A stretch of DNA of 64,000 nt from Octopus vulgaris (GCA_951406725.2 OX597843.1:1550001-1614000), one strand, 5' to 3'; positions 1 through 53,635 are shown, counted from the stretch's first letter. The notes: generated from the sequence alone by a model not told the origin. Translations and numbers: made by a program.

Positions 1-159
1 CTGCGCATGCGCGGGTTGAGTACTGCATGCGCGAAAGAATAAGTCCTGAGTCGATCGATAAGCTGCTGCCATGAGTGAATGCGCGAAAGTGTGAATGCGC
101 ATGCGCGAAGGTGTGACTGCGCATGCGCGAACGTGTGAATGCGCATGCGCGAGAGCGCA

Positions 160-2020
160 TGGCCGCAGTGAAAGGTGCTCTAGCATGGCTGCAGTGAAAT
201 GACTGAAACAGATTAAAGAGAGTATATACAGGCACAGGAATGGCTGTGTGGAACCACATGATTCCGGGTTCAGTACTGGGCTTACAAAAGAATAAGTCCT
301 GGAGTCGAGTTGCTCGATTAAAGGCGGTGCTCCAGCATGGCCGCAGTGAAATGACTGAAACAGAGTAAAGAGAGTATATACAGGCACAGGAATGGCTGTG
401 TGGAACCACATGATTCCGGGTTCAGTACTGGGCTTACAAAAGAATAAGTCCTGGAGTCGAGTTGCTCGATTAAAGGCGCGTGTGAGCATGCGCATGGCGA
501 AAAAGTGGAGTGGCATCGCAGTGATGGCTGGGAACTGAAACCGCGATGGCAAAAGATAACTGGCAGGCGAAAGGATGAGTGCTGCATGGAACGTGAAATG
601 TGATCATGGTTCAGGTGGACTGGGACAACGTGTGACTGGAGCAAGATAAGTCCTGGAGTCGAGTTGCTCGATTAAAGTGTGCTGCAGCATGGCCGCAGTG
701 AAATGACTGAAACAGAGTAAAGAGAGTATATACAGGCACAGGAATGGCTGTGTGGAACCACATGATTCCGGGTTCAGTACTGGGCTTACAAAATAATAAG
801 TGACTGGAGTCGAGTTGCTCGATTAAAGGCGGTGCGCACTGCGCATGGCCGCAGTGAAATGACTGAAACAGAGTAAAGAGAGTATATACAGGCACAGGAA
901 TGGCTGTGTGGAACCACATGATTCCGGGTTCAGTACTGGGCTTACAAAAGAATAAGTCCTGGAGTCGAGTTGCTCGATTAAAGGCGGTGCTGCAGCATGG
1001 CCGCAGTGAAATGACTGAAACAGAGTAAAGAGAGTATATACAGGCACAGGAATGGCTGTGTGGAACCACATGATTCCGGGTTCAGTACTGGGCTTACAAA
1101 AGAATAAGTCCTGGAGTCGAGTTGCTCGATTAAAGGCGGTGCGACTGCGCATGGCCGCAGTGAAATGACTGAAACAGAGTAAAGAGAGTATATACAGGCA
1201 CAGGAATGGATGTGTGGAACCACATGATTCCGGGTTCAGTACTGGGCTTACAAAAGAATAAGTCCTGGAGTCGAGTTGCTCGATTAAAGGCGGTGCGACT
1301 GAGCATGGCCGCAGTGAAATGACTGAAACAGAGTAAAGAGAGTATATACAGGCACAGGAATGACTGTGTGGAACCACATGATTCCGGGTTCAGTACTGGG
1401 CTTACAAAAGAATAAGTCCTGGAGTCGAGTTGCTCGTTTAAAGGCGGTGCTCCAGCATGGCCGCAGTGAAATGACTGAAACAGAGTAAAGAGAGTATATA
1501 CAGGCACAGGAATGGCTGTGTGGAACCACATGATTCCGGGTTCAGTACTGGGCTTACAAAAGAATAAGTCCTGGAGTCGAGTTGCTCGATTAAAGAAGGT
1601 GCGACTGCGCATGGCCGCAGTGAAATGACTGAAACAGAGTAAAGAGAGTATATACAGGCACAGGAATGGCTGTGTGGAACCACATGATTCCGGGTTCAGT
1701 ACTGGGCTTACAAAATAATAAGTACTGGAGTCGAGTTGCTCGATTAAAGGCGGTGCTCCAGCATGGCCGCAGTGAAATGACTGAAACAGAGTAAAGAGAG
1801 TATATACAGGCACAGGAATGGCTGTGTGAACCACATGATTCCGGGTTCAGTACTGGGCTTACAAAAGAATAAGTCCTGGAGTCGAGTTGCTCGATTAAAG
1901 GCGGTGCTGCAGCATGGCCGCAGTGAAATGACTGAAACAGAGTAAAGAGAGTATATACAGGCACAGGAATGGCTGTGTGGAACCACATGATTCCGGGTTC
2001 AGTACTGGGCTTACAAAAGA
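160..2020 (+). repeat. 152/154-bp tandem monomer array (mini-SINE satellite)
   Basis: Unit ggcacaggaatggctgtgtggaaccacatgattccgggttcagtactgggcttacaaaagaataagtcctggagtcgagttgctcgattaaaggcggtgctgcagcatggccgcagtgaaatgactgaaacagagtaaagagagtatataca recurs every 152-154 bp; garbled at ~480-640. Confidence 0.95.
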
Positions 2021-2095
2021 ATATATATACGATGGTCTTCTTTCAGTTCCGTCTACCAAATCAACTCACAAGGCTTTGGTCGGCCCAATGTGCCA

Positions 2096-3710
2096 CGCAT
2101 GCGCGAAAGTGTGACTGCGCATGCGTTAACGTGTGACTGCGCATGCGCGAAAGTGTGAATGCGCATGCGCGAAAATGTTAGTGCGCATGCGCGAACGTGT
2201 GACTGCGCATGCGCGGAACGTGTGAATGCGCATGCGCGAACGTGTGACTGCGCATGCGCGGAAGTTTGAATGCGCATGCGCGAAAGTGTGACTGCGAATA
2301 AGCTAAAACGTGTGAACTGCGCATGCGCGAAAGTGTTAGAATGCGCATGCGCGAAGGTGTGACTGCGCATGCGCGAACGTGTGAATGCGCATGCGCGAGA
2401 GCGCATGGCCGCGAGTGAAATGACTGCAGAGTAAAGAGAGTATATACAGCGCACAGGAATGGCTGTGTGGAACCACATGCATTCGCGGGTTCAGTACTGG
2501 GCTTACAAAAGAATAAGTCCTGCGATGCGAGTTGCTTGCGATTAAAGTGTGACTGCGCATGCGCAATATGGCCGCATGCGCGAAGTGAAATGACTGAAAC
2601 AGAGTAAGAGAGTATATACAGGCACAGGAATGGCTGTGTGGAACCACATGATTCCGGGCGCATAGTACTGGGCTTACAAAAGAATATATATACGCATGCG
2701 TCTTCTTGTCAGTGCGCGTCTACGAAATCAACTGCGCATGCGCTAAAGTTTGGTCGGCGCGAAAGTGTGAGTGCGCATGCGCGAAAGTGTGACTGCGCAT
2801 GCGCGAACGTGTGAGTGCGCATGCGCGAATGTGTGAATGCGCATGCGCGAAAGTTTAGTGCGCATGCGCGAAAGTGTGACTGCGCATGCGCGGAACGTGT
2901 GACTGCGCATGCGCGAAAGTGCGACTGCGCATGCGCGAAAGTTTGAGTGCGCATGCGCGAAAGTGCGACTGCGCATGCGCGAACGTTTGACTGCGCATGC
3001 GCGGAAGTGTAAGTGCGCATGCGCGAAAGTGTTACTGCGCATGCGCGAACGTGTGAATGCGCATGCGGAACGTGTGACTGCGCATGCGCGAAAGTGTGAG
3101 TGCGCATGCGCGAAAGTGTTACTGCGCATGCGCGAACGTGTGAATGCGCATGCGCGGAAGTGCGACTGTGCGCATGCGCGAACGTGTGACTGCGCATGCG
3201 CGAACGTGTGACTGCGCATGCGCGGAAGTGTGAGTGCGCATGCGCGAAAGTGTGACTGCGCATGCGCGAACGTTTGACTGCGCATGCGCGAAAGTGTGAG
3301 TGCGCATGCGCGAAAGTTTAACTGCGCATGCGCGAAAGTGTGAATGCGCATGCGCGAAAATGAGTGTGCATGCGCGAAAGTTTAACTGCGCATGCGCGAA
3401 AGTGTGACTGCGCATGCGCGAACGTGTGACTGCGCATGCGCAAATTATTAACTGCGCATGCGCGAACGTGTGACTGCGCATGCGCAAAAGTGTGACTGCG
3501 CATGCGCGAAAATGTTATTGCGCATGCGCGAACGTGTGAATGCGCATGCGCGAACGTGTGACTGCGCATGCGCGGAAGTGTGAGTGCGCATGCGCGAAAG
3601 TGCGACTGCGAATAAGCTAAAGTGTGAATGCGCATGCGCGAAAGTGTGAATGCGCATGCGCGAAGGTGTGACTGCGCATGCGCGAACGTGTGAATGCGCA
3701 TGCGCGAGAG
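2096..3710 (+). repeat. 22-bp minisatellite (gtgtgactgcgcatgcgcgaa[a/c])n, interrupted at ~2400-2755 by hybrid 152-mer sequence
   Basis: Direct reading of tandem units with constant core tgcgcatgcgcg. Confidence 0.93.
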
Positions 3711-4738
3711 CGCATGGCCGCAGTGAAATGACTAAAACAGAGTAAAGAGAGTATATACAGGCACAGGAATGGCTGTGTGGAACCACATGATTCCGGGTTC
3801 AGTACTGGGCTTACAAAAGAATAAGTCCTGGAGTCGAGTTGCTCGATTAAAGGCGGTGCTGCAGCATGGCCACAGTGAAATGACTGAAACAGAGTAAAGA
3901 GAGTATATACAGGCACAGGAATGGCTGTGTGGAACCACATGATTCCGGGTTCAGTACTGGGCTTACAAAATAATAAGTCCTGGAGTCGAGTTGCTCGATT
4001 AAAGGCGGTGCGACTGCGCATGGCCGCAGTGAAATGACTGAAACAGAGTAAAGAGAGTATATACAGGCACAGGAATGGCTGTGTGGAACCACATGATTCC
4101 GGGTTCAGTACTGGGCTTACAAAAGAATAAGTCCTGGAGTCGAGTTGCTCGATTAAAGGCGGTGCTGCAGCATGGCCGCAGTGAAATGACTGAAACAGAG
4201 TAAAGAGAGTATATACAGGCACAGGAATGGCTGTGTGGAACCACATGATTCCGGGTTCAGTACTGGGCTTACAAAAGAATAAGTCCTGGAGTCGAGTTGC
4301 TCGATTAAAGGCGGTGCTCCAGCATGGCCGCAGTGAAATGACTGAAACAGAGTAAAGAGAGTATATACAGGCACAGGAATGGCTGTGTGGAACCAACATG
4401 ATTCCGGGTTCAGTACTGGGCTTACAAAAGAATAAGTCCTGGAGTCGAGTTGCTCGATTAAAGGCGGTGTGACTGCGCATGGCCGCAGTGAAATGACTGA
4501 AACAGAGTAAAGAGAGTATATACAGGCACAGGAATGGCTGTGTGGAACCACATGATTCCGGGTTCAGTACTGGGCTTACAAAAGATTAAGTCCTGGAGTC
4601 GAGTTGCTCGATTAAAGGCGGTGCTGCAGCATGGCCGCAGTGAAATGACTGAAACAGAGTAAAGAGAGTATATACAGGCACAGGAATGGCTGTGTGGAAC
4701 CACATGATTCCGGGTTCAGTACTGGGCTTACAAAAGAA
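3711..4738 (+). repeat. 152-bp monomer array
   Basis: About 6.7 tandem copies of the same monomer. Confidence 0.95.
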
Positions 4739-4814
4739 TATATATACGATGGTCTTCTTTCAGTTTCCGTCTACCAAATCAACTCACAAGGCTTTGGTCG
4801 GCCCAAGGTGCCAC

Positions 4815-5505
4815 GCATGCGCGAAAGTGTGACTGCGCATGCGTTAACGTGTGACTGCGCGAAAGTGTGCTGCGCCTGCGCGAAAGTGTGAATGCGCATG
4901 CGCGAAAATGTTAGTGCGCATGCGCGAACGTGTGACTGCGCATGCGCGGAAAGTTTGAATGCGCATGCGCGAAAGTGCGACTGCGCATGCGCGAAAGTGT
5001 GACTGCGCATGCGCGAAAGTGTGAGTGCGCATGCGCGAACGTGTGAGTGCGCATGCGCGAAAGTGTAACTGCGCATGCGCGAAAGTGTTACTGCGCATGC
5101 GCAACGTGTGACTGCGCATGCGCGAAAGTGTGAGTGCGCATGCGCGGAAGTGTAAGTGCGCATGCGCGAAAGTGTCGACTGCGCATGCGCGAACGTGTGA
5201 CTGCGCATGCGCGAACGTGTGACTGCGCATGCGCAAAAGTGTAACTGCGCATGCGCGAACGTGTGACTGCGCATGCGCAAACGTTTGACTGCGCATGCGC
5301 GAAAGTGTGATTGCGCATGCGCGAAAGTGTTACTGCGCATGCGCGAACGTGTGAATGCGCATGCGCGGAAAGTGTGAGTGCGCATGCGCGAAAGTGCGAC
5401 TGCGCAATAAGCGAAAGTGTGAATGCGCATGCGCGAAAGTGTGAATGCGCATACGCGAAGGTGTGACTGCGCATGCGCGAACGTGTGAATGCGCATGCGC
5501 GAGAG
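4815..5505 (+). repeat. 22-bp GCGCATGCGC minisatellite block
   Basis: Tandem 22-mers with the same start and end variants as the other blocks. Confidence 0.95.
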
Positions 5506-6682
5506 CGCATGGCCGCAGTGAAATGACTAAAACAGAGTAAAGAGAGTATATACAGGCACAGGAATGGCTGTGTGGAACCACATGATTCCGGGTTCAGTAC
5601 TGGGCTTACAAAAGAATAAGTCCTGGAGTCGAGTTGCTCGATTAAAGGCGGTGCTGCAGCATGGCCGCAGTGAAATGACTGAAACAGAGTAAAGAGAGTA
5701 TATACAGGCACAGGAATGGCTGTGTGGAACCACATGATTCCGGGTTCAGTACGGGGCTTACAAAATATTAAGTCCTGGAGTCGAGTTGCTCGATTAAAGG
5801 CGGTGCGACTGCGCATGGCCGCAGTGAAATGACTGAAACAGAGTAAAGAGAGTATATACAGGCACAGGAATGGCTGTGTGGAACCACATGATTCCGGGTT
5901 CAGTACTGGGCTTACAAAAGAATAAGTCCTGGAGTCGAGTTGCTCGATTAAAGGCGGTGCTGCAGCATGGCCGCAGTGAAATGACTGAAACAGAGTAAAG
6001 AGAGTATATACAGGCACAGGAATGGCTGTGTGGAACCACATGATTCCGGGTTCAGTACTGGGCTTACAAAAGAATAAGTCCTGGTGTCGAGTTGCTCGAT
6101 TAAAGAAGGTGCTCTAGCATGGCTGCAGTGAAATGACTGAAACAGATGAAACAGAGTATATACAGGCACAGGAATGGCTGTGTGGAACCACATGATTCCG
6201 GGTTCAGTACTGGGCTTACAAAAGAATAAGTCCTGGAGTCGAGTTGCTCGATTAAAGAAGGTGCTCTAGCATGGCTGCAGTGAAATGACTGAAACAGAGT
6301 AAAGAGAGTATATACAGGCACAGGAATGGCTGTGTGGAACCACATGATTCCGGGTTCAGTACTGGGCTTACAAAATAATAAGTCCTGGAGTCGAGTTGCT
6401 CGATTAAAGGCGGTGCGACTGCGCATGGCCGCAGTGAAATGACTGAAACAGAGTAAAGAGAGTATATACAGGCACAGGAATGGCTGTGTGAACCACATGA
6501 TTCCGGGTTCAGTACTGGGCTTACAAAAGAATAAGTCCTGGAGTCGAGTTGCTCGATTAAAGGCGGTGCTGCAGCATGGCCGCAGTGAAATGACTGAAAC
6601 AGAGTAAAGAGAGTATATACAGGCACAGGAATGGCTGTGTGGAACCACATGATTCCGGGTTCAGTACTGGGCTTACAAAAGA
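5506..6682 (+). repeat. 152-bp monomer array
   Basis: About 7.7 tandem copies. Confidence 0.95.
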
Positions 6683-6756
6683 ATATATATACGATGGTCT
6701 TCTTTCAGTTTCCGTCTACCAAATCAACTCACGGCCCAAGGCTTTGGTCGGCCCAA

Positions 6757-7357
6757 AGTGTGAATGCGCATGCGCGAAAATGGTGCCACGCAGCGCGGAA
6801 GTGTGGTGCGCATGCGCGAAAGTGCGACTGCGCATGCGCGTGAATGCGCATGCGCGAAAGTGTGAGTGCGCATGCGCGAAAGTGTGACTGCGCATGCGCG
6901 AAAGTGTGAATGCGCATGCGCGAGAGTGTGAGTGCGCATGCGCGAAAGTGTAACTGCGCATGCGCGAAAGTGTGACTGCGCATGCGTCAACGTGTGACTG
7001 CGCATACGCGAACGTGTGACTGCGCATGCGCGAAAGTGTGAGTGCGCATGCGCGAAGGTGCGACTGCGCATGCGCGAACGTGTGACTGCGCATGCGCGGA
7101 AGTGTAAGTGCGCATGCGCGAAAGTGCGACTGCGCATGCGTTAACGTGTGACTGCGCATGCGCGAAAGTGTGAGTGCGCATGCGCGAAAGTGTTACTGCG
7201 CATGCGCGAACGTGTGAATGCGCATGCGTGGAAGTGTGAGTGCGCATGCGCGAAGGTGCGACTGTGCATGCGCGAACGTGTGACTGCACATGCGTGGAAG
7301 TGTAAGTGCGCATGCGCGAAAGTTCGACTGCGCATGCGCGAAAGTGTGAGTGCGCAG
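6757..7357 (+). repeat. 22-bp GCGCATGCGC minisatellite block
   Basis: Tandem 22-mers ending at the inversion junction ...gtgagtgcgcagt|ctgtgcctgtat. Confidence 0.95.
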
Positions 7358-7358
7358 T

Positions 7359-10300
7359 CTGTGCCTGTATATACTCTCTTTACTCTGTTTCAGTCATTTC
7401 ACTGCGGCCATGCTGCAGCACCGCCTTTAATCGAGCAACTCGACTCCAGGACTTATTCTTTTGTAAGCCCAGTACTGAACCCGGAATCATGTGGTTCCAC
7501 ACAGCCATTCCTGTGCCTGTATATACTCTCTTTACTCTGTTTCAGTCATTTCACTGCGGCCATGCTGGAGCACCTTCTTTAATCGAGCAACTCGACTCCA
7601 GGACTTATTCTTTTGTAAGCCCAGTACTGAACCAGGAATCATGTTGTTCCACACAGCAAATCCTCTGCCTGTATATACTCTCTTTACTCTGTTTCAGTCA
7701 TTTCACTGCGGCCATGCGCTCTCGCGCATGCGCATTCACACGTTCGCGCATGCGCAGTCACACCTTCGCGCATGCGCATTCACACTTTCGCGCATGCGCA
7801 TTCACACTTTAGCTTATTCGCAGTCGCACTTTCGCGCATGCGCACTCACACTTTTGCGCATGCGCAGTCACACGTTCGCGCATGCGCAGTCACACGTTCG
7901 CGCATGCGCAGTTACAATTTTGCGCATGCGCAGTCACACGTTCGCGCATGCGCAGTCACACTTTCGCGCATGCGCAGTTAAACTTTCGCGCATGCGCACT
8001 CACACTTTCGCGCATGCGCATTCACACGTTCGCGCATGCGCACTCACACTTTCGCGCATGCGCAGTCAAACGTTCGCGCATGCGCAGTCACACGTTAACG
8101 CATGCGCAGTCGCACTTTCGCGCATGCGCACTAACACTTCCGCGCATGCGCAGTCACACGTTCGCGCATGCGCAGTCGCACCTTCGCGCATGCGCACTCA
8201 CACTTCCGCGCATGCGCATTCACACGTTCGCGCATGCGCAGTAACACTTTCGCGCATGCGCACTCACACTTTCGCGCATGCGCAGTCAAACGTTCGCGCA
8301 TGCGCAGTCACACGTTAACGCATGCGCAGTCGCACTTTCGCGCATGCGCACTTACACTTCCGCGCATACGCAGCAACACGTTCGCGCATGCGCAGTCGCA
8401 GCTTCGCGCATGCGCACTCACACTTCCGCGCATGCGCAGTCACACGTTCGCGCATGCGCAGTCACACGTTGACGCATGCGCAGTCACACTTTCGCGCATG
8501 CGCAGTTACACTTTCGGGCATGCACACTCACACTCTCGCGCATGCGCATTCACACGTTCGCGCATGCGCAGTCACACTTTCGCGCATGCGCACTCACACT
8601 TTCGCGCATGCGCATTCAAACTTTAGCGCATGCGCAGTCGCACTTTCGCGCATGCGCACTCACACTTCCGCGCATGCGCAGTCACACGTTCGCGCATGCG
8701 CACTAACATTTTCGCGCATGCGCATTCACACTTTCGCGCCGGCGCAGTCACACGTTAACGCATGCGCAGTCACACATTCGCGCATGCGTGGCACCTTGGG
8801 CCGACCAAAGCCTTGTGAGTTGATTTGGTAGACGGAAACTGAAAGAAGACCATCGTATATATATTCTTTTGTAAGCCCAGTACTGAACCCGGAATCATGT
8901 GGTTCCACACAGCCATTCCTGTGCCTGTATATACTCTCTTTACTCTGTTTCAGTCATTTCACTGCGGCCATGCTGCAGCACCGCCTTTAATCGAGCAACT
9001 CGTCTCCAGGACTTATTCTTTTGTAAGCCCAGTACTGAACCCGGAATCATGTTGTTCCACACACCAAATCCTGTGCCTGTATATACTCTCTTTACTCTGT
9101 TTCAGTCATTTCACTGCGGCCATGCTGGAGCACCTTCTTTAATCGAGCAACTCGACTCCAGGACTTATTCTTTTGTAAGCCCAGTACTGAACCCGGAATC
9201 ATGTTGTTCCACACAGCCATTCCTGTGCCTGTATATACTCTCTTTACTCTGTTTCAGTCATTTCACTGCGGCCATGCTGGAGCACCGCCTTTAATCGAGC
9301 AACTCGACTCCAGGACTTATTCTTTTGTAAGCCCAGTACTGAACCCGGAATCATGTGGTTCCACACAGCCATTCCTGTGCCTGTATATACTCTCTTTACT
9401 CTGTTTCAGTCATTTCACTGCGGCCATGCTGGAGCACCGCCATTAATCGAGCAACTCGACACCAGGACTTATTCTTTTGTAAGCCCAGTACTGAACCCGG
9501 AATCATGTGGTTCCACACAGCCATTCCTGTGCCTGTATATACTCTCTTTACTCTGTTTCAGTCATTTCACTGCGGCCATGCTGCAGCACCGCCTTTAATC
9601 GAGCAACTCGACTCCAGGACTTATTCTTTTGTAAGCCCAGTACTGAACCGGAATCATGTGGTTCCACACAGCCATTCCTGTGCCTGTATATACTCTCTTT
9701 ACTCTGTTTCAGTCATTTCACTGCGGCCATGCGCTCTCGCGCATGCGCATTCACACGTTCGCGCATGCGCAGTCACAACTTCGCGCATGCGCATTCACAC
9801 TTTCGCGCATGCGCATTCACACTTTCGCTTATGCGCAGTCACACTTTCGCGCATGCGCACTCACACGTTCGCGCATGCGCAGTCACACGTTCGCGCATGC
9901 GCATTCACACGTTCGCGCATGCGCAATCTCACCTTCGCGCATGCGCAATAACATTTTCGCGCATGCGCAGTCACACGTTCGCGCATGCGCAGTCACACGT
10001 TCGCGCATGCGCAGTTACACGTTTGCGCATGCGCAGTCACACGTTCGCGCATGCGCAGTCACACTTTCGCGCATGCGCAGTTAAACTTTCGCGCATGCGC
10101 ACTCACACTTTCGCGCATGCGCATTCACACGTTCGCGCATGCGCAGTAACACTTTCGCGCATGCGCACTCACACTTTCGCGCATGCGCAGTCAAACGTTC
10201 GCGCATGCGCAGTCACACGTTAACGCATGCGCAGTTGCACTTTCGCGCATGCGCACTAACACTTCCGCGCATGCGCAGTCACACGTTCGCGCATGCGCAG

Positions 10301-11651
10301 TCGCACCTTCGCGCATGCGCACTAACACTTTCGCGCATGCGCACCAACACGTTCGCGCATGCGCAGTCTCACCTTCGCGCATGCGCACTCACACTTTCGC
10401 GCATGCGCAGTCAAACGTTCGCGCATGCGCAGTCACACGTTAACGCATGCGCAGTCGCACTTTCGCGCATGCGCACTTACACTTCCGCGCATGCGCAGTC
10501 ACACGTTCGCGCATGCGCAGTCGCACCTTCGCGCATGCGCACTCACACTTCCGCGCATGCGCAGTCACACGTTCGCGCATGCGCAGTCACACGTTGACGC
10601 ATGCGCAGTCACACTTTCGCGCATGCGCAGTTACACTTTCGCGCATGCGCACTCACACTCTCGCGCATGCGCATTCACACTTTCGCGCATGCGCACTCAC
10701 ACTTTCGCGCATGCGCATTCACACTTTAGCGCATGCGCAGTCGCACTTTCGCGCATGCGCACTCACACTTCCGCGCATGCGCAGTCACACGTTCGCGCAT
10801 GCGCACTAACATTTTCGCGCATGCGCATTCACACTTTCGCGCAGGCGCAGTCACAGGTTAACGCATGCGCAGTCACACTTTCGCGCATGCGTGGCACCTT
10901 TGGCCGACCAAAGCCTTGTGAGTTGATTTGGTAGACGGAAACTGAAAGAAGACCATCGTATATATATTCTTTTGTAAGCCCAGTACTGAACCCGGAATCA
11001 TGTGGTTCCACACAGCCATTCCTGTGCCTGTATATACTCTCTTTACTCTCTTTCAGTCATTTCACTGCGGCCATGCTGCAGCACCGCCTTTAATCGAGCA
11101 ACTCGACTCCAGGACTTATTATTTTGTAAGCCCAGTACTGAACCCGGAATCATGTGGTTCCACACAGCCATTCCTGTGCCTGTATATACTCTCTTTACTC
11201 TGTTTCAGTCATTTCACTGCGGCCATGCTGCAGCACCTTCTTTAATCGAGCAACTCGACTCCAGGACTTATTCTTTTGTAAGGCCAGTACTGAACCCGGA
11301 ATCATGTTGTTCCACACAGCAAATCCTGTGCCTGTATATACTCTCTTTACTCTGTTTCAGTCATTTCACTGCGGCCATGCTGGAGCACCGCCTTTAATCG
11401 AGCAACTCGACTCCAGGACTTATTCTTTTGTAAGCCCAGTACTGAACCCGGAATCATGTGGTTCCACACAGCCATTCCTGTGCCTGTATATACTCTCTTT
11501 ACTCTGTTTCAGTCATTTCACTGCGGCCATGCTGCAGCACCGCCTTTAATCGAGCAACTCGACTCCAGGACTTATTCTTTTGTAAGCCCAGTACTGAACC
11601 CGGAATCATGTGGTTCCACAGAGCCATTCCTGTGCCTGTATATACTCTCTT
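7359..11651 (-). repeat. Inverted block of the composite satellite (152-mers 7359-7715, 8864-9732, 10967-11651; 22-mers 7716-8788, 9733-10891)
   Basis: All units are the reverse complement of those in 1-7357. Confidence 0.95.
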
Positions 11652-11766
11652 GTGTGACTGCGCATGCGCGAACGTGTGACTGTGCATGCGCCAAAGTAAG
11701 ACTGCGCATGCGCTAAAGTTTGACTGCGCATGCGCGAACGTGTGACTGCGCATGCGCGAACGTGTG

Positions 11767-12052
11767 GGAAGAAGGGGGAGAAGCAACATAGGTGCAGGTG
11801 TGACCATGGACGCCAACTCCGCCGCCATCGTCACACGAAAATATATGCGTTAAAATGGAAAAAAATGATGTTAAATTATTTTTATATCGTAGACTCATCG
11901 TAGACGCGCGCTAATACCCAGAAGGGCTCGATATGAATCACGACTACAAGATACCCGCTTTTGGTTAAACTGCACCGCAAAATGTGGGAGTATTTAGGAA
12001 TTTAAATCGTAGGAGACAGACACTCACACAACTACTGTTTTATATATATAGA
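11767..12052 (-). mobile_element. 5' part of non-autonomous Helitron running into the 22-bp minisatellite (copies end at 15083 and 18120)
   Basis: Minus strand starts A|TCTATATATATAAAACAGTAGTTGTGTG; ~190 bp are homologous to the 5' end of the complete Helitron at 12188. Confidence 0.75.
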
Positions 12053-12187
12053 TTTTGTGAAATTTGATTTAGTATTTCTAAATTGAATTTTTCCCTGTAA
12101 GTTATGAATAATATTCCCTCAAATTATATATATATATATATACTGTATATATATATGTGTATGTGTGTATATATATATATATATATA

Positions 12188-12588
12188 TCTTTATATATAA
12201 AAGTGAAGTTGTGTGTCTGTCCCCTACGATTTAGATTCCTAACTACTCCCTCATTTTGCGGTGCAGAGTAACCAAAAGCGGGTATCTTATAGTCGTGATT
12301 CATATCGAGCCCTTCTGCGTATTAGCGCACGTCTACGATGAGTTTACGATTAAAAAAAAAAATTTACCATCATTTTTTCCGCAGTTTTAATGCATTTTCG
12401 CTCGGTTTATATAAGGGAAGTAACTCTCTAAAAATGTATTATTAAATCTCAGAATGTAAAAAGCTACAGTAACACCCCCCCCCTTTGTGGGTAGCCATAT
12501 TGAGATGGCTATTATACTTTACATCTCTAAAAATGCTTATATAGTTATTTCCCTTACAAACCCGAGCAACGCCGGGCGACACTGCTAG
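12188..12588 (+). mobile_element. Non-autonomous Helitron (~400 bp)
   Basis: A|TCTTTATATATAAAAG 5' end; 3' subterminal hairpin CCCGagcaacgcCGGG followed by CTAG|T; inserted at AT with no TSD (canonical Helitron termini). Confidence 0.85.
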
Positions 12589-12667
<79 letters not shown>

Positions 12668-12669
<2 letters not shown>

Positions 12670-12790
12670 TCTTTCATTCTTTTATTTGTTACAGTCATTT
12701 GACTTTCGCCATGCTGGAGCACTGCCTTTAGTCGAGCAAATCGACTCTAGGGATTATTCTTTGTAAGCCTAGTACTTATTCTATTTTGCC
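12668..12790 (-). mobile_element. SINE 3' fragment (same family as the parent of the 152-mer); also in duplication copies 2 and 3
   Basis: cagtcatttgact..gccatgctggagcactgcctttagtcgagcaaatcgac..ttattctttgtaagcctagtacttattc matches 51060-51160. Confidence 0.8.
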
Positions 12791-13350
12791 ACACACACAT
12801 ACATATACACACACACACACATACATATATACACATACGCACACACACTCACACACGTATACACACATACATCCTGCTGCTTCTTGGGAGGGTCATTGTG
12901 CCAATAACGATATGGTTACACATCTGACCAACTTCGTAATCAATCATTTGTTTAACGTGCTGGTTAAACAATCAAAGATTTATTTCTTCGTGAAAGTCCG
13001 TTCATCGCTATTTTTCGCGACCTTTTCAATAGCTTGTCCTTTCTCTTCAACGTCTGCCCTGAATTTGGCCGCGAATTAATCTTATGTCTGCGTGCATGCA
13101 TGCCTTTCTATGTGTGTGTAGATGTGTGTTTGCTTAGAAGAATAAGGGTGAGAGGAAAGGAGATTATGTCCGTGCGTGCGAGTGTGTATGTGTGTGTGTG
13201 TGTGTGCGTGCGTATGTGTGTGGTTGTGTGTACACTCGTGTGACTACTTGCATGTGTATGTGTACGTGTGTGTTAGTGTGTGTAGCCATCCATGACTAGG
13301 TATGTGTATGTATAACTGTGTCTATATACGCACATAGATTTATATGCAAG

Positions 13351-13582
13351 AGGCGGCGAGCTGGCAGAAACGTTAGCACGCCGGGCGAAATGCTTAGCAG
13401 TATTTCGTCTGCCGCTACGTTCTGAGTTCAAATTCCGCCGAGGTCGACTTTGCCTTTCATCCTCTCGGCGTCGATAAATAAAGTACCAGTTTCGCACTGG
13501 GTCGATGTAATCGACTTAATCCGTTTGTCCGTCCTTGTTTGTCCCCTCTATGTTTAGCCCCTTGTGGGTAGCAAAAGAAATA
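13351..13582 (+). mobile_element. tRNA-derived SINE with Nin/Deu-like core (copies ~16383-16613, ~19426-19657)
   Basis: Head ggcggcgagctggcagaaacgttagc, B-box-like gagttcaaattc, core gccgaggtcgactttgcctttcatcct...gtcgataaataaagtacc; homologous to 48005-48142 on the minus strand. Confidence 0.8.
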
Positions 13583-13608
13583 TATACCATGTATATATGT
13601 GAATAGAA

Positions 13609-13842
13609 GCAGGCGTGACTGTGTTGTAAGCCGTTCCGGGTTCAGTCCAGCTGCGTGGCACTTTGAGCGGGTGTTTCTACTATAGCCCTGGGTCGACTAA
13701 ACCCTTGTGAGTAGATTTGGTTGACAGAATCTGAAAAAGCTCGTCATATATGTCTTTATCAATATTTAGCAGAAGCAACAGAGTGACTCGAGGGGCGAGA
13801 GTTTCGTGTATTGACACTTGTCAAACTACACACAGACACACA

Positions 13843-13883
<41 letters not shown>

Positions 13884-14032
13884 CCATACATATGCATGAG
13901 TGGCCGTGTGGTAAGTAGCCTGCTTACCAACCACATGGTTCTGGGTTCAGCCTCATTGCGTGACGCCTTGGTCTTCTCCTAGAGCCTCAGGCCAACCAAA
14001 GCCTTGTGAGTGAATTTGGTAGACGGAAACTG
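13609..14032 (+). mobile_element. Two degenerate SINE 5' halves (13609-13748, 13897-14032)
   Basis: gtggccgtgtggtaag..aaccacatggttctgggttcag..ccttgtgagtgaatttggtagacggaaactg matches the reverse complement of 51300-51471. Confidence 0.75.
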
Positions 14033-15224
14033 TGTGTGTGTTTGTGTTTGTCCCCCCGATGGTGGCATGTATATACATAATACTGATACGTAACTGGACA
14101 GAATAAATTTAAAATCTATAAATGTCTTCGAATAACCAGTCACTCATCTGGGAAAGCCTTGAAATCAATGTTACCATCTGGGGACTATGTGTGACCGAGT
14201 GATAATAAAAAGACTGAAAGGAGGTCTGCAATCAAATAAATTTTACTCTACACTTTGCAACTGAATCAGTGGAGGCAAAGATGCCTCTCATTTACTTGAC
14301 AATTTATGCAGCACATTGCAGAAATCACAATGTAAGTGTATGTCAAAACAAACTGTTACACTGTTGTACCATTGAATTACAAATAATGCTCATCTTTTAT
14401 GCTCGGGTAACCCTACAGCTTCCAAGAGCACAACTGTATTCATTTTTGCTTAGATAAAATGACAAAATTGTAGATGTTAAGTCCCCATGGAGGGGTCTTT
14501 CTAACTTTGTAAGATGAAATTTTATAGATATTACTTCATTTGTGTCTAATCACTGCGGCCATGCTGCAGCACCGCCTTTAATCGAGCAACTCGACTCCAG
14601 GACTTATTCTTTTGTAAGCCCAGTACTGAACCCGGAATCATGTGGTTCCACACAGCCATTCCTGTGCCTGTATATACTCTCTTGTGTGACTGCGCATGCG
14701 CGAACGTGTGACTGTGCATGCGCCAAAGTAAGACTGCGCATGCGCTAAAGTTTGACTGCGCATGCGCGAACGTGTGACTGCGCATGCGCGAACGTGTGGG
14801 AAGAAGGGGAGAAGCAACATAGGTGCAGGTGTGACCATGGACGCCAACTCCGCCGCCATCGTCACACGAAAATATATGCGTTAAAATGGAAAAAAATGAT
14901 GTTAAATTATTTTTATATCGTAGACTCATCGTAGACGCGCGCTAATACCCAGAAGGGCTCGATATGAATCACGACTACAAGATACCCGCTTTTGGTTAAA
15001 CTGCACCGCAAAATGTGGGAGTATTTAGGAATCTAAATCGTAGGAGACAGACACTCACACAACTACTGTTTTATATATATAGATTTTGTGAAATTTGATT
15101 TAGTATTTCTAAATTGAATTTTTCCCTGTAAGTTATGAATAATATTCCCTCAAATTATATATATATATATATATATATACTGTATATATATATGTGTATG
15201 TGTGTATATATATATATATATATA

Positions 15225-15622
15225 TCTTTATATATAAAAGTGAAGTTGTGTGTCTGTCTCCTACGATTTAGATTCCTAACTACTCCCTCATTTTGCGGTG
15301 CAGAGTAACCAAAAGCGGGTATCTTATAGTCGTGATTCATATCGAGCCCTTCTGGGTATTAGCACACGTCTACGATGAGTTTACGATTAAAAAAAAAAAT
15401 TTACCATCATTTTTTCCGTAGTTTTAATGCATTTTCGCTCGGTTTATATAAGGGAAGTAACTCTCTAAAAATGTATTATTAAATCTCAGAATGTAAAAAG
15501 CTACAGTAACACCCCCCTTTGTGGTTAGCCATATTGAGATGGCTATTATACTTTACATCTCTAAAAATGCTTATATAGTTATTTCCCTTACAAACCCGAG
15601 CAACGCCGGGCGACACTGCTAG
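15225..15622 (+). mobile_element. Non-autonomous Helitron, copy 2
   Basis: Same termini as 12188-12588. Confidence 0.85.
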
Positions 15623-15699
<77 letters not shown>

Positions 15700-16874
15700 T
15701 CTTTCATTCTTTTATTTGTTACAGTCATTTGACTTTCGCCATGCTGGAGCACTGCCTTTAGTCGAGCAAATCGACTCTAGGGATTATTCTTTGTAAGCCT
15801 AGTACTTATTCTATTTTGCCACACACACATACATATACACACACACACACACATACATATATACACATACGCACACACACTCACACACGTATACACACAT
15901 ACATCCTGCTGCTTCTTGGGAGGGTCATTGTGCCAATAACGATATGGTTACACATCTGACCAACTTCGTAATCAATCATTTGTTTAACGTGCTGGTTAAA
16001 CAATCAAAGATTTATTTCTTCGTGAAAGTCCGTTCATCGCTATTTTTCGCGACCTTTTCAATAGCTTGTCCTTTCTCTTCAACGTCTGCCCTGAATTTGG
16101 CCGCGAATTAATCTTATGTCTGCGTGCATGCATGCCTTTCTATGTGTGTGTAGATGTGTGTTTGCTTAGAAGAATAAGGGTGAGAGGAAAGGAGATTATG
16201 TCCGTGCGTGCGAGTGTGTATGTGTGTGTGTGTGTGTGCGTGCGTATGTGTGTGGTTGTGTGTACACTCGTGTGACTACTTGCATGTGTATGTGTACGTG
16301 TGTGTTAGTGTGTGTAGCCATCCATGACTAGGTATGTGTATGTATAACTGTGTCTATATACGCACATAGATTTATATGCAAGAGGCGGCGAGCTGGCAGA
16401 AACGTTAGCACGCCGGGCGAAATGCTTAGCAGTATTTCGTCTGCCGCTACGTTCTGAGTTCAAATTCCGCCGAGGTCGACTTTGCCTTTCATCCTCTCGG
16501 CGTCGATAAATAAAGTACCAGTTTCGCACTGGGTCGATGTAATCGACTTAATCCGTTTGTCCGTCCTTGTTTGTCCCCTCTATGTTTAGCCCCTTGTGGG
16601 TAGCAAAAGAAATATATACCATGTATATATGTGAATAGAAGCAGGCGTGACTGTGTTGTAAGCCGTTCCGGGTTCAGTCCAGCTGCGTGGCACTTTGAGC
16701 GGGTGTTTCTACTATAGCCCTGGGTCGACTAAACCCTTGTGAGTAGATTTGGTTGACAGAATCTGAAAAAGCTCGTCATATATGTCTTTATCAATATTTA
16801 GCAGAAGCAACAGAGTGACTCGAGGGGCGAGAGTTTCGTGTATTGACACTTGTCAAACTACACACAGACACACA

Positions 16875-16918
<44 letters not shown>

Positions 16919-18259
16919 ACCCATACATATGCATGAGTGGCCGTGTGGTAAGTAGCCTGCTTACCAACCACATGGTTCTGGGTTCAGCCTCATTGCGTGA
17001 CGCCTTGGTCTTCTCCTAGAGCCTCAGGCCAACCAAAGCCTTGTGAGTGAATTTGGTAGACGGAAACTGTGTGTGTGTTTGTGTTTGTCCCCCCGATGGT
17101 GGCATGTATATACATAATACTGATACGTAACTGGACAGAATAAATTTAAAATCTATAAATGTCTTCGAATAACCAGTCACTCATCTGGGAAAGCCTTGAA
17201 ATCAATGTTACCATCTGGGGACTATGTGTGACCGAGTGATAATAAAAAGACTGAAAGGAGGTCTGCAATCAAATAAATTTTACTCTACACTTTGCAACTG
17301 AATCAGTGGAGGCAAAGATGCCTCTCATTTACTTGACAATTTATGCAGCACATTGCAGAAATCACAATGTAAGTGTATGTCAAAACAAACTGTTACACTG
17401 TTGTACCATTGAATTACAAATAATGCTCATCTTTTATGCTCGGGTAACCCTACAGCTTCCAAGAGCACAACTGTATTCATTTTTGCTTAGATAAAATGAC
17501 AAAATTGTAGATGTTAAGTCCCCATGGAGGGGTCTTTCTAACTTTGTAAGATGAAATTTTATAGATATTACTTCATTTGTGTCTAATCACTGCGGCCATG
17601 CTGCAGCACCGCCTTTAATCGAGCAACTCGACTCCAGGACTTATTCTTTTGTAAGCCCAGTACTGAACCCGGAATCATGTGGTTCCACACAGCCATTCCT
17701 GTGCCTGTATATACTCTCTTGTGTGACTGCGCATGCGCGAACGTGTGACTGTGCATGCGCCAAAGTAAGACTGCGCATGCGCTAAAGTTTGACTGCGCAT
17801 GCGCGAACGTGTGACTGCGCATGCGCGAACGTGTGGGAAGAAGGGGAGAAGCAACATAGGTGCAGGTGTGACCATGGACGCCAACTCCGCCGCCATCGAC
17901 ACACGAAAATATATGCGTTAAAATGGAAAAAAATGATGTTAAATTATTTTTATATCGTAGACTCATCGTAGACGCGCGCTAATACCCAGAAGGGCTCGAT
18001 ATGAATCACGACTACAAGATACCCGCTTTTGGTTAAACTGCACCGCAAAATGTGGGAGTATTTAGGAATCTAAATCGTAGGAGACAGACACTCACACAAC
18101 TACTGTTTTATATATATAGATTTTGTGAAATTTGATTTAGTATTTCTAAATTGAATTTTTCCCTGTAAGTTATGAATAATATTCCCTCAAATTATATATA
18201 TATATATATATATACTGTATATATATATGTGTATGTGTGTATATATATATATATATATA

Positions 18260-18657
18260 TCTTTATATATAAAAGTGAAGTTGTGTGTCTGTCTCCTACG
18301 ATTTAGATTCCTAACTACTCCCTCATTTTGCGGTGCAGAGTAACCAAAAGCGGGTATCTTATAGTCGTGATTCATATCGAGCCCTTCTGGGTATTAGCAC
18401 ACGTCTACGATGAGTTTACGATTAAAAAAAAAATTTACCATCATTTTTTCCGTAGTTTTAATGCATTTTCGCTCGGTTTATATAAGGGAAGTAACTCTCT
18501 AAAAATGTATTATTAAATCTCAGAATGTAAAAAGCTACAGTAACACCCCCCCTTTGTGGTTAGCCATATTGAGATGGCTATTATACTTTACATCTCTTAA
18601 AAATGCTTTATAGTTATTTCCCTTACAAACCCGAGCAACGCCGGGCGATACTGCTAG
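18260..18657 (+). mobile_element. Non-autonomous Helitron, copy 3
   Basis: Same termini as 12188-12588. Confidence 0.85.
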
Positions 18658-18738
<81 letters not shown>

Positions 18739-19917
18739 TCTTTCTTTTATTCTTTTATTTGTTACAGTCATTTGACTTTCGCCATGCTGGAGCACTGCCT
18801 TTAGTCGAGCAAATCGACTCTAGGGATTATTCTTTGTAAGCCTAGTACTTATTCTATTTTGCCACACACACATACATATACACACACACACACACATACA
18901 TATATACACATACGCACACACACTCACACACGTATACACACATACATCCTGCTGCTTCTTGGGAGGGTCATTGTGCCAATAACGATATGGTTACACATCT
19001 GACCAACTTCGTAATCAATCATTTGTTTAACGTGCTGGTTAAACAATCAAAGATTTATTTCTTCGTGAAAGTCCGTTCATCGCTATTTTTCGCGACCTTT
19101 TCAATAGCTTGTCCTTTCTCTTCAACGTCTGCCCTGAATTTGGCCGCGAATTAATCTTATGTCTGCGTGCATGCATGCCTTTCTATGTGTGTGTAGATGT
19201 GTGTTTGCTTAGAAGAATAAGGGTGAGAGGAAAGGAGATTATGTCCGTGCGTGCGAGTGTGTATGTGTGTGTGTGTGTGTGCGTGCGTATGTGTGTGGTT
19301 GTGTGTACACTCGTGTGACTACTTGCATGTGTATGTGTACGTGTGTGTTAGTGTGTGTAGCCATCCATGACTAGGTATGTGTATGTATAACTGTGTCTAT
19401 ATACGCACATAGATTTATATGCAAGAGGCGGCGAGCTGGCAGAAACGTTAGCACGCCGGGCGAAATGCTTAGCAGTATTTCGTCTGCCGCTACGTTCTGA
19501 GTTCAAATTCCGCCGAGGTCGACTTTGCCTTTCATCCTCTCGGCGTCGATAAATAAAGTACCAGTTTCGCACTGGGTCGATGTAATCGACTTAATCCGTT
19601 TGTCCGTCCTTGTTTGTCCCCTCTATGTTTAGCCCCTTGTGGGTAGCAAAAGAAATATATACCATGTATATATGTGAATAGAAGCAGGCGTGACTGTGTT
19701 GTAAGCCGTTCCGGGTTCAGTCCAGCTGCGTGGCACTTTGAGCGGGTGTTTCTACTATAGCCCTGGGTCGACTAAACCCTTGTGAGTAGATTTGGTTGAC
19801 AGAATCTGAAAAAGCTCGTCATATATGTCTTTATCAATATTTAGCAGAAGCAACAGAGTGACTCGAGGGGCGAGAGTTTCGTGTATTGACACTTGTCAAA
19901 CTACACACAGACACACA

Positions 19918-19966
<49 letters not shown>

Positions 19967-20809
19967 CCATACATATGCATGAGTGGCCGTGTGGTAAGTA
20001 GCCTGCTTACCAACCACATGGTTCTGGGTTCAGCCCCATTGCGTGACGCCTTGGTCTTCTCCTAGAGCCTCAGGCCAACCAAAGCCTTGTGAGTGAATTT
20101 GGTAGACGGAAACTGTGTGTGTGTTTGTGTTTGTCCCCCCGATGGTGGCATGTATATACATAATACTGATACGTAACTGGACAGAATAAATTTAAAATCT
20201 ATAAATGTCTTCGAATAACCAGTCACTCATCTGGGAAAGCCTTGAAATCAATGTTACCATCTGGGGACTATGTGTGACCGAGTGATAATAAAAAGACTGA
20301 AAGGAGGTCTGCAATCAAATAAATTTTACTCTACACTTTGCAACTGAATCAGTGGAGGCAAAGATGCCTCTCATTTACTTGACAATTTATGCAGCACATT
20401 GCAGAAATCACAATGTAAGTGTATGTCAAAACAAACTGTTACACTGTTGTACCATTGAATTACAAATAATGCTCATCTTTTATGCTCGGGTAACCCTACA
20501 GCTTCCAAGAGCACAACTGTATTCATTTTTGCTTAGATAAAATGACAAAATTGTAGATGTTAAGTCCCCATGGAGGGGTCTTTCTAACTTTGTAAGATGA
20601 AATTTTATAGATATTACTTCATTTGTGTCTAATGTCTATGGTTAAAATTTCATCAACAGCAAAAATATATGAATTGTCATGGGGGTTATGGCCCTTATGC
20701 ATAGAATATAATTTCCAAATTTCATAAAGATTCATTCAGTACTTTTGACCAAGTTTTGGATCATAAAAGAAATTACTAAAATTTGGGATTTATGGCTCCC
20801 ATTAGGGTG

Positions 20810-20860: not shown

Positions 20861-21140
20861 TACACACACACAAAGATAAATTGATAGATACAACTGAGTG
20901 GGCAAACAAAAATATGAGACACAGCCTAGTGCTTTTTTATGTTGATAAGCCTAGTACTTACTCTATTAGTTTGTTCTTGTGAAACCAGTAAGTTATGTGG
21001 ATGTAAATAAGTGAACAGCAGTTGTGAAGCAGTGATGAGGGCGAAACACAGAGACAAAGACACACACATACACTTACATATATACATACATATATATACG
21101 ATTTATTTGTTACAGTTCCTGTCTACGAAATCCATATATA

Positions 21141-23844: not shown

Positions 23845-23921
23845 ACACATACACTTACATATATACATACATATATATACGATTGATTTGTTTCAGTTCC
23901 TGTCCACGAAATCCATATATA

Positions 23922-24572: not shown

Positions 24573-25139
24573 TTGGGTTGTCCGGAAAGTTCGTTCCGAT
24601 TTTTAAAGGAAAGTACATGGTCACTAAATACTTGCCATTACATTTTTAATGAACCAAATCTGAACCATTTCGTTGCACAATACGTCTCCATCTTACATTT
24701 ACCTTAAAAATACCCTCTTCCCAGAATTGGGGTGGTTTCAAGGCAAATAATTCATCAAGGTATCTTTTTACGTCATCTAAGGAATTGAAATTTTCACCAT
24801 TAAGACTATTCTGCAGAGACCTGAATAAGTGGAAATCCGAAGGAGTAATATCTGGTGAATATGGAGGGTGGGGTAAGTCACCCCAGCCAAGCTGCAGCAA
24901 TTTTTGTCTGGTTCCCAAAGCATCAAATGCCGATAATGAATTTTTCTCATCTTTTAATTTAAAGGGTTACAGAATTAACACAGGTTATTGGAACATGAAC
25001 CTTCTTCCACGAAAAGATAGATTAAACTGTGCTCCAAATGGAGGTGTAGTCAAATCCTATTTTATGGACTCAAACATGTTCTAAAATAAGTCGAAATATA
25101 AGCTACTATAAATCTGCAAGAACTTTCCGGACAACCCAA
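24573..25139 (-). mobile_element. Internally deleted mariner element with TIRs and TA duplication
   Basis: TA|ttgggttgtccggaaagttc ... gaactttccggacaacccaa|TA; transposase C-terminus at 24646-24918 (PHPPYSPDITPSDFHLFRSLQ). Confidence 0.92.
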
Positions 25140-25613
25140 TATTTCTATATTTTTATCATGAAATTTTTAATATAAATATGTGGATATTCGTATGGAATAA
25201 TACCTCATGTGCTACATCTGAATTTTCTTGTCTGAATGTTTTAAGACAAATATCCGAAATTTTTATCGTATACCACATTTTATTAATACTTAGCTCATAT
25301 ACGGAGACAAAAATGTTGTACTATATACTGCAGGTTATCTCCATTAAAATTATATTTAGCATTAGAATTCTTCAAGTTGTATAAAAATGGTTATTGTCTG
25401 CATCATTCGAAAGCAAAATAAATTTTGCATAAGGTGTAAAAGATAAAAATAATTTGTATGGTGTTAGTAACAAAATATTTTGTAAGAAATAGAACTTTTA
25501 TCGTCTGTCTTAAATATATTTTCGCCAGTGTATATATCTCAGGTCATCCCATAAGTTCTGTTTGAATTTTGGATAAATAATACAAGTGATCAAATGTTAT
25601 ATTTAATTGAAAG

Positions 25614-26610: not shown

Positions 26611-26641
26611 GTTGAAAGGGGTTTTAATCAAAGCAATTTTA

Positions 26642-29035: not shown

Positions 29036-29683
<648 letters not shown>

Positions 29684-29689
29684 ATGCGA

Positions 29690-50259: not shown

Positions 50260-50305
<46 letters not shown>

Positions 50306-51249: not shown

Positions 51250-51297
<48 letters not shown>

Positions 51298-53604: not shown

Positions 53605-53635
<31 letters not shown>

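Follow-up and report, generated by a model that had tools for sequence, protein, structure and literature searches.

The window, a stretch of 64,000 nucleotides analysed over its whole length, is rich in satellites and remnants of transposable elements (TEs), and its start falls inside a tandem array. Between positions 160 and 6682, we found 28 heads of a monomer of 152 bp, all on the plus strand and grouped into blocks (174-478, 646-2023, a garbled block at ~2400-2690, 3712-4740 and 5507-6685) that occupy 4,179 bp of the interval. A 22-bp minisatellite on the same strand (blocks at 79-152, 2096-2398, 2757-3707, 4814-5502 and 6755-7356) occupies another 1,943 bp of the interval, and inverted pieces from the middle of a SINE are also present. 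One of these pieces, on the minus strand at 4740-4813, is 88% identical to the SINE over 69 bp and is itself internally deleted; others lie at 2023-2086, 6685-6754, 8794-8862 and 10902-10965, with a garbled one near 2690-2755. Together these parts form a repeated composite unit, some 2 kb long, in which 152-mers are followed by inverted SINE middle and then by a CpG-rich array of palindromic 22-mers. The preliminary description had presented the interval as a 152-mer satellite, but the array is not pure: it is interspersed with 22-mers and with the very SINE middle that was said to be deleted.

The array extends past 6682 to 11766. At a fold-back point (7351-7360, inversion at 7356/7357) the array changes strand at TGCGCA, a 6-bp palindrome within the 22-mer, and the inverted half (7357-11651, minus strand) again consists of 152-mers (7359-7717, 8862-9732 and 10965-11651) and 22-mers (7722-8788 and 9737-10891). 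A second satellite block on the plus strand (57115-59259) contains a partial monomer, 23 22-mers and 10 monomers, and ends at an assembly gap at 59260. At its start (57073-57118, plus strand), a 5-bp microhomology, AATGG, links the 5′ half of a tRNA-Ser gene to a monomer head. Each 22-mer has a 10-bp palindromic core, GCGCATGCGC, and the CpG observed/expected ratio is 1.83; the palindromes may be of the NRF1/EWG type, a motif with 212 matches in the window. A 3.03-kb tandem triplication on the plus strand (11520-20632), with units 99% identical, has one breakpoint inside the terminal monomer and gave rise to the two isolated partial monomers found at 14552-14683 and 17589-17720. These lone monomers, considered as possible seed copies, were ruled out as such, being breakpoints of the triplication; contigs at 14550 run on into a non-satellite repeat.

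As a reference monomer we used positions 891-1042 on the plus strand (152 bp, 48% GC), the commonest variant, with 6 exact copies among the 42 complete head-to-head monomers in the window. These monomers measure 151-156 bp and have a mean identity of 97.8% to the reference. The monomer aligns in two parts to a SINE on the minus strand at 51475-51035. The head part (891-934, 44 bp including an AGT join) is identical to the SINE at 36 of 41 positions (17/21 and 19/20), which flank a blunt 17-bp deletion after position 911; this deletion is exactly the one named in the preliminary description. Against three SINE copies the head match scores 48, 38 and 48, values reached by none of 2000 dinucleotide shuffles (maxima 24, 21 and 25.5). 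The tail part (932-1035), with four small hairpins, is 92-93% identical to full SINE copies (82/89 to the copy above, 85/91 to that at 55020). Head and tail are fused at a 3-bp AGT microhomology inside the B box, with 263 bp of SINE body (51416-51154) removed.

The two-part alignment and the shuffles thus bear out the proposed fusion of SINE head to SINE tail at this AGT, and with the junction they support the conversion of a SINE to a satellite; at the level of sequence, the 152-bp monomer is confirmed as a head-tail fusion. Two details of the proposal need correction. A body deletion is present, but the ~280 bp given for it is the sum of both deletions, because 263 and 17 make 280. Also, the monomer is not made of head and tail only: the last 7 bp (1036-1042), linking each tail to the next head, are not SINE, and by analogy with the TSD-(SINE-TSD)n arrays discussed below they are likely a remnant of the target site. 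The repeated unit is homologous to parts of a SINE and shorter than the SINE, as in SINE-derived satellites, and monomer runs comprise 2-11 copies, with head-to-tail tandems of up to 9-10 similar units, where four would suffice for such a satellite.

The parent family is represented in the window by three full copies on the minus strand (51035-51472, 54617-55029 and 56369-56813) and by fragments; its copies are dispersed and abundant and end in a short tandem tail. The A and B boxes of the SINE align to those of the local tRNA-Ser, and Rfam gave no tRNA match on the head. In Rfam searches of the satellite no family reached the gathering score, and the monomer and SINE head had only chance-level matches. 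Presumably, the parent SINE and its repeat-rich surroundings resemble the octopus tRNA-derived SINEs OK, OR1 and OR2. An existing repeat library for O. vulgaris comprises 80 satellite families. All pieces of the composite except the 22-mer and the 7-bp linker map at 88-93% to this one family in the same window. For the 22-mer, a post hoc comparison with the SINE tail (score 25, null mean 18.7, p 0.027) weakly suggests that it, too, may derive from the tail.

The junctions within the composite recur exactly: 22-mer to 152-mer six times, 152-mer to inverted SINE six times and inverted SINE to 22-mer four times. The blocks also have a common order of 22-mer variants (for example, starting D..MA and ending FLC). 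Microhomology of 3-6 bp is present at 6 of 14 junctions, whereas any one random join would have it with a probability of 5.1% (binomial p 3.6e-5), a statistic in which the junctions are partly non-independent, the donors were chosen among window copies and a 15th junction of unknown donor is excluded. At the other 8 of 14 the overlap is 0-2 bp, including the head deletion (0), the junction from monomer to inverted middle (1), and that from 22-mer to 152-mer, which was anchored on another 22-mer site and entered as 2 bp. In a 154-bp monomer variant, each edge is a 5-bp overlap with the 22-mer.

We also compared one stretch with public contigs from four of 24 sequencing runs (X1, X2 and X5, from organisms A, B and C, and X15), leaving out organisms D-H. 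In X2, 61 contigs pass into another monomer at each monomer end, and one more joins end to start. The repeat therefore occurs beyond one locus and one sample: the window has a second block, and a run with another organism label yields head-to-tail contigs. In the preliminary description, restriction to a single locus, together with the absence of CENP-A, TFIIIC or transcript signal, would have refuted the functional part. The satellite-specific head bin amounts to 3.1% of the SINE-tail bin in X1, 29.9% in X2 and 0.49% in X5, a rough abundance index that spans about 60-fold across the three organism labels and represents sums over contigs rather than copy numbers. The share of one CpG-type change is 31% in X2 but 5% in X1 and X5, and may reflect a variant homogenised in organism B. 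In X15, an RNA run by guess and of uncertain library type, the satellite-specific bin is 0.012% of the SINE-tail bin; contig depth being a poor measure, we place this value on neither side of the question of transcription. Exact-pattern scans of metagenome, viral and prokaryotic genome contigs gave 0 loci; the shared-SINE control also gave 0 in metagenomes, and the blank scans are therefore uninformative. Four short motifs from the window were absent from the published full texts searched.

These observations lead us to favour, with a probability of roughly 0.6, a composite satellite that was put together and spread at the DNA level, through recombination or template switching between short stretches of shared sequence, and that has no dedicated function. 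The lack of such a function is likely, judging from one window with no positive signs of it. In the proposed sequence of events, 17 bp of head and 263 bp of body were first lost from one SINE copy, leaving the AGT join inside the B box, as the alignment shows. The shortened SINE, with 7 bp of flank, may then have been put in tandem in the manner of TSD-(SINE-TSD)n arrays. A monomer run would next have been joined to inverted SINE middle and to a 22-mer array; here the junctions can be read directly and the mechanism is our suggestion, as it is for three later events, in which the array would have folded back at a 22-mer palindrome, 22-mer letters would have been swapped into monomers to give the 154-bp variant, and the array would have entered the tRNA-Ser gene at AATGG. 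That the composite itself was copied as one unit is shown by its junctions and 22-mer variant order, which recur. Finally, by the rough index, the satellite may have expanded to very different amounts among related organisms. On this account, the Helitron-like 5′ end at the end of the first block would be a chance or later join.

Several other readings assign the repeat a function or another mode of spread. The preliminary description had proposed a centromeric satellite, based on the ~152-bp size, and TFIIIC binding or Pol III multimer RNAs, based on a B-box-like motif in each monomer. The size argument finds no support in the features examined, and the deletion breakpoints alone account for the length. 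Moreover, the window has no long homogeneous array, its short runs being interrupted by CpG-rich 22-mer arrays, and the monomer, at 48% GC, is not the AT-rich unit with 10-bp WW phasing or a CENP-B box that is a common, though non-universal, feature of centromeric satellites: it has no 10-bp WW periodicity (p=0.62), and its best match to the CENP-B box has 6 of 9 bases, with 3 missed. The CENP-B box test carries little weight outside mammals. In reptiles there are SINE satellites measuring 126-151 bp, of which the one described as mapped is subtelomeric, not centromeric. A pericentromeric role has a precedent nonetheless: the limpet satellite PcH-sat (179 bp), derived from a Nin-SINE, is reported to be pericentromeric and to make up 0.3-10% of the genome among congeners (PMC11121367). 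That the 152-mer is a major centromeric or pericentromeric satellite in some related species, with the window holding a small outlying or degraded block, would agree with this precedent, the high monomer identity, the bin ratio of ~30% in organism B and the satellite- and TE-rich window that opens inside an array, but on balance we consider it improbable. The B-box-like motif itself is largely retained: of 53 monomer heads, 49 carry GGTTCAGTAC unchanged, 41 have the exact A-box-like word and 38 have both. Each box (901-911 and 927-936, plus strand) is one mismatch off consensus, with the same mismatches as the parent; in the B box this is a G at the conserved A position, a departure from GWTCRAnnC. 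The AGT join preserves the final C among the conserved B-box positions, neither the monomer nor the whole composite unit has a T4 terminator on the sense strand, and the tail folds better than its shuffles (z -2.5), much like the parent tail (z -2.4). These features would suit a working mini-SINE that yields Pol III multimers, is reverse transcribed by a partner LINE via its tail and binds TFIIIC at its B boxes; the array would then expand in part by way of RNA. Within a monomer, however, the boxes are only 15 bp apart, compared with 32 in the parent, ~35 in tRNA genes and a working range of some 30-40 bp, above which longer gaps are tolerated; pairing of an A box with the B box of the next monomer (167 bp) is possible, because separations of up to about 365 bp have been reported as functional. 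Recent origin alone predicts retention of the boxes, and satellite-specific changes both strengthen and break the tail stems; selection for RNA structure was ruled out, the hairpins being largely inherited from the SINE tail. Furthermore, every lone monomer in the window is a duplication breakpoint, the X2 contigs leave a monomer head into another tail (agreement 0.95) and not into varied flanks, and one Pol III multimer cannot yield the inverted and 22-mer parts. A working mini-SINE is accordingly a quite improbable explanation. We would give little credence, too, to a wider version, in which boxes, LINE-recognition tail and lack of a terminator, with multimers read via the next B box and alternating with NRF1/EWG-type palindromes, would make a self-feeding retro-satellite that is a major, possibly pericentromeric, satellite in a sister species; if true, it would be a SINE-to-centromere transition caught in progress.

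Alternatively, the array could be internal cargo of a non-autonomous Helitron that captured SINE pieces and carried or amplified them by rolling-circle transposition, as in the Cg_HINE elements, which hold one or two consecutive tandem arrays in the oyster (PMC7492417). The first block does end with five 22-mers (11652-11766) directly before a Helitron-like 5′ end (feature 11652-12052, minus strand), with the 5′ TC after A at 12053-12051. This end is 87% identical over 213 bp to an adjoining complete, non-autonomous Helitron-like element of 401 bp (12188-12588, plus strand) that has canonical ends (TC after A, a 16-bp imperfect palindrome, and CTAG before T) but is free of satellite. The window, from which the left end of the array and the right end of the second block are out of view, contains no 3′ palindrome with CTRR before T that bounds the array: the hairpin with CTAG occurs only at 12561, 15595 and 18630, in the three copies of the satellite-free element, and its stability is unremarkable (z 0.62). 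A tRNA gene contains the start of the second block, public contigs hold the Helitron-like part in great abundance, and among the loose ends listed, those at 14798 and 14821 lead to non-22-mer sequence. The three copies of the join in the window trace to the one 3-kb triplication. Helitron carriage therefore strikes us as unlikely. A further concern is that, although the monomer is real, the unit number, fold-back and tRNA join could be largely assembly artefacts of collapsed or chimeric long reads. Garbled stretches (1-60, 480-645, 2400-2760 and 6715-6800), the fold-back at 7356, the gap at 59260 and the 99%-identical triplication invite this suspicion; no match to the monomer occurs in 480-645, identity in 2400-2760 is 87%, and both stretches, with 1-60, look like assembly-consensus noise. 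On the other hand, the junction motifs repeat to the letter on both strands, an independent run shows head-to-tail monomers, an 83-bp contig is identical to the Helitron-adjacent 22-mers, and in one X15 contig the joined 22-mer and monomer lie on opposite strands of the stretch compared, which is how they meet in the composite. We regard a largely artefactual layout as very improbable, and retain recombination or template switching as the preferred reading.

The satellite is clearly a new case of a path already known to lead from mobile to satellite DNA; SINE-derived satellites have already been reported in reptiles (PMC10702118) and molluscs (PMC11121367). The sSat1-3 repeats of squamate reptiles, whose tandem units measure 67-290 bp and come from a tRNA-type SINE, are similar in their short-to-long arrays, high identity, alternating variants and strongly differing abundance among species, and some retain a B box (PMC10702118). 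As described in the text of that report, each unit is an uninterrupted stretch of SINE and a SINE end borders the array, whereas here head and tail are joined across a 263-bp deletion, neither box is lost and the unit alternates with a second repeat in a 2-kb composite. In the limpet Patella caerulea, PcH-sat is likewise molluscan, derives from the 3′ part of a SINE, has a nucleosome-range monomer and differs in abundance among congeners, but is described as 179 bp long, AT-rich, without A and B boxes and pericentromeric by FISH (PMC11121367), compared with 152 bp, 48% GC and both boxes here. The TSD-(SINE-TSD)n arrays reported for S. broughtonii, a blood clam, are also close, with 4-15 identically truncated head-to-tail SINEs, a constant short linker and palindromic arrangements (PMC11481361); their truncation is described as terminal, whereas ours is internal, with the arrays nested within a repeated composite that includes a minisatellite. 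The non-autonomous Cg_HINE Helentrons of the Pacific oyster have short arrays resembling satellites, in some cases two successive kinds, by the ends of a rolling-circle element, but according to their description both ends flank the array and subTIRs are present (PMC7492417), while here a single 5′ end of canonical-Helitron type lies at one of two visible array ends. Finally, the ‘TE graveyards’ account of composite satellite DNA similarly has a repeated unit made from several rearranged TE remnants; it is presented as a hypothesis for degraded monomers of multiple TEs (PMC12628747), whereas here one SINE family is involved and the junctions can be read to the base.

The origins of satellites are usually blurred by age, whereas here the parent SINE lies in the same window at 88-93% identity and most junctions are readable to the base. 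The present evidence identifies neither a centromere nor a functional RNA. The repeat does offer a tractable case for asking how a composite satellite arises from scraps of TEs, and whether it makes a difference that Pol III boxes are left in it. If the host is an octopus, this easily probed, species-variable repeat would also serve as a cytogenetic marker.

Tandem Repeats Finder placed arrays of the 152-bp monomer at 174-478, 646-2023, 3712-4740 and 5507-6685, with further ones on the minus strand within 7359-11651 and another at 57697-59259. The window holds 42 monomers that are complete from one head to the next, each 151-156 bp long, whose mean identity to the commonest variant (891-1042) is 97.8%. 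This reference monomer aligns to the SINE at 51475-51035 (minus strand) as two separate parts: a head (36/41 identical) flanking a 17-bp deletion, and a tail identical at 82 of 89 positions, or at 85 of 91 when the copy at 55020 is used. Head and tail share the 3 bp AGT where they meet, 263 bp of SINE being skipped, and the final 7 bp of the monomer are non-SINE. In 2000 shuffles the head score was never reached, whichever of three SINE copies served as the target. The alignment thus bears out the head-tail anatomy and supports the SINE origin proposed in the preliminary description, while the body deletion of ~280 bp given there holds as the sum of both deletions and not as a single event. 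Parent copies in the window are still 88-93% identical to the satellite pieces, and the parent is a candidate member of the OK/OR SINE families of octopus. (These families are cited in PMC4758252.) The SINE copy at 13600-13770, with its triplicated copies, has its own, different deletion of ~20 bp between the A and B boxes, so spacer loss is recurrent in the parent family. Nine tRNA-Ser(TGA) genes lie on both strands at 49235-57141, several of them adjoining SINE copies, and a truncated tenth is fused to the satellite; the segment ~50300-51700 recurs at ~55600-57000, a spacing of 5.3 kb.

The stretch 160-6682 had been described as an array of the monomer, which is true of 4,179 bp; a further 1,943 bp belong to blocks of a second repeat, 22 bp long, whose core is a 10-bp palindrome. 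Every monomer run terminates in an inverted ~70-bp piece from the middle of the parent SINE (88% identity), giving the order monomers, inverted SINE middle, 22-mers, monomers. Identical to the letter, the three junction types are found 6, 6 and 4 times, and the order of 22-mer variants is common to the 22-mer blocks; what is repeated is therefore a composite unit, ~1.3-2.2 kb long and in most cases close to 2 kb. At 7356 the array turns back on itself through the 22-mer palindrome. Nine monomers correspond to a variant of 154 bp, where the SINE letters lying between two 5-bp overlaps have given way to letters of the 22-mer. The 22-mer blocks (79-11766, 57197-57705 and the triplication copies) carry a palindromic motif, a putative site of NRF1/EWG type, with 212 matches in the window, and CpG is not depleted in them (observed/expected 1.83).

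Garbled mosaics of monomer and 22-mer at 1-60, 480-645, 2400-2760 and 6715-6800 are probably assembly-consensus noise, so copy counts taken within the window call for caution. That the array layout as such is an artefact is highly improbable. Of the 24 public runs listed, 20, from 14 studies, contain words of 880-2100; the runs whose share is 0.23 or higher carry organism labels A-H. Contigs from four runs were compared with window 14100-15110. In run X2 (organism B), 61 contigs run on into another monomer at each monomer end and one links monomer end to monomer start, so the tandem arrangement is real independently of the window assembly. The ratio of the satellite-specific head bin to the SINE-tail bin, a rough index since summed contig depth is not copy number, was 3.1% in X1 (organism A), 29.9% in X2 and 0.49% in X5 (organism C). 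The share of a CpG-type substitution is 5% in both X1 and X5 and 31% in X2; as the 31% matches the satellite share, this suggests a variant that may have been homogenised in organism B.

Given the observed SINE deletions, junctions and unit repetition, we favour, at a probability of about 0.6, an origin in which a single SINE copy suffered deletions and was put in tandem together with a short flank, for which the TSD-(SINE-TSD)n arrays reported in blood clam (PMC11481361) are a precedent. Monomers would then have been fused to the inverted SINE-middle piece and the palindromic 22-mer, and the composite amplified as a whole; later shuffling and spread may have proceeded by microhomology-guided recombination or template switching. 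We infer this enzymatic route, as well as the absence of a dedicated function. Microhomology of 3-6 bp is found at 6 of 14 junctions, where 5.1% is expected per join (p 3.6e-5), and the other eight overlap by just 0-2 bp; the count leaves out a 15th row, which has no known donor, some of the junctions depend on one another, and the donors come from among the window copies. The second block (57115-59259) begins at a 5-bp overlap that lies within a tRNA-Ser gene. The first ends at 11766, in sequence leading into a Helitron-like 5' end; across 213 bp this end shares 87% identity with the complete 401-bp element located at 12188-12588 (A|TC, 16-bp imperfect palindrome, CTAG|T), whose ends are canonical for Helitrons according to PMC4067079. 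This boundary would suit an array carried as Helitron cargo (PMC7492417), an explanation that we consider unlikely: no Helitron 3' end bounding the array was found in the window, the Helitron-like part occurs at very high abundance in public contigs, and the loose ends listed lead out of it into non-22-mer sequence. A 3-kb triplication (99% identical) is the source of two further satellite/Helitron-like joins and two lone partial monomers. The Helitron-like elements at 12188-12588 and 11767-12052 are related, non-autonomous and back to back, their 5' ends ~135 bp apart, and the abundance of the family is about that of the SINE tail in public contigs.

That the repeat is a (peri)centromeric satellite (its size had earlier been called typical of centromeric ones) is distinctly improbable. 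The monomer has 48% GC and lacks both a 10-bp WW periodicity (p 0.62) and a CENP-B box, a motif that carries little weight outside mammals, and its runs in the window are 2-11 copies long. SINE-derived satellite units of 126-151 bp are reported in reptiles, where sSat3, the one mapped, is subtelomeric (PMC10702118), and a limpet satellite derived from a SINE is pericentromeric (PMC11121367); size thus neither predicts nor excludes such a role. Retro-amplification of the monomer through Pol III is very unlikely. Of 53 monomer heads, 38 carry exact A and B boxes, with one-base deviations common to monomer and parent. No T4 run occurs on the monomer sense strand, the hairpins of the tail come from the parent without improvement, and the A and B boxes are 15 bp apart, compared with 32 bp for the parent and ~35 bp for tRNA genes (PMC4333407). 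An A box could pair with the B box of the following monomer, 167 bp off, which is conceivable since activity is reported at separations to ~365 bp (PMC12498455) and which counts against our own reading. Overall, TFIIIC binding, Pol III transcription and a centromeric role would be putative functions of the monomer.

Elsewhere in the window, a broken LINE at 21140-23900 (minus strand; reverse-transcriptase piece PF00078, E 1.6e-22) has an end that does not match the SINE tail, and broken transposase pieces lie at 24646-27050 (PF01359, 25776-26141, minus; HTH_32, 26730-27047, plus). Adjoining simple arrays occupy 28784-30302 (a 5-bp repeat with a variant switch midway, a 4-bp repeat x162 and a GC-rich 70-mer x8.8). 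The largest array, a 16-kb AT-rich 29-bp satellite (30723-46803; 10% GC), changes the sign of its GC-skew near the middle and has similar repeat pieces on either flank.

An O. vulgaris annotation gives 80 satellite families (3.12%; PMC13282606). Neither this repeat nor any cephalopod SINE satellite was described in the literature searched, which lay outside subscription journals, Repbase and Dfam. SINE-derived satellites are known as a class, and composite monomers derived from transposable elements have been reported (PMC12628747, PMC12692304). Unlike the described cases, the head-tail fusion here retains both boxes, the composite is nested with a palindromic minisatellite, and the parent SINE is still 88-93% identical.
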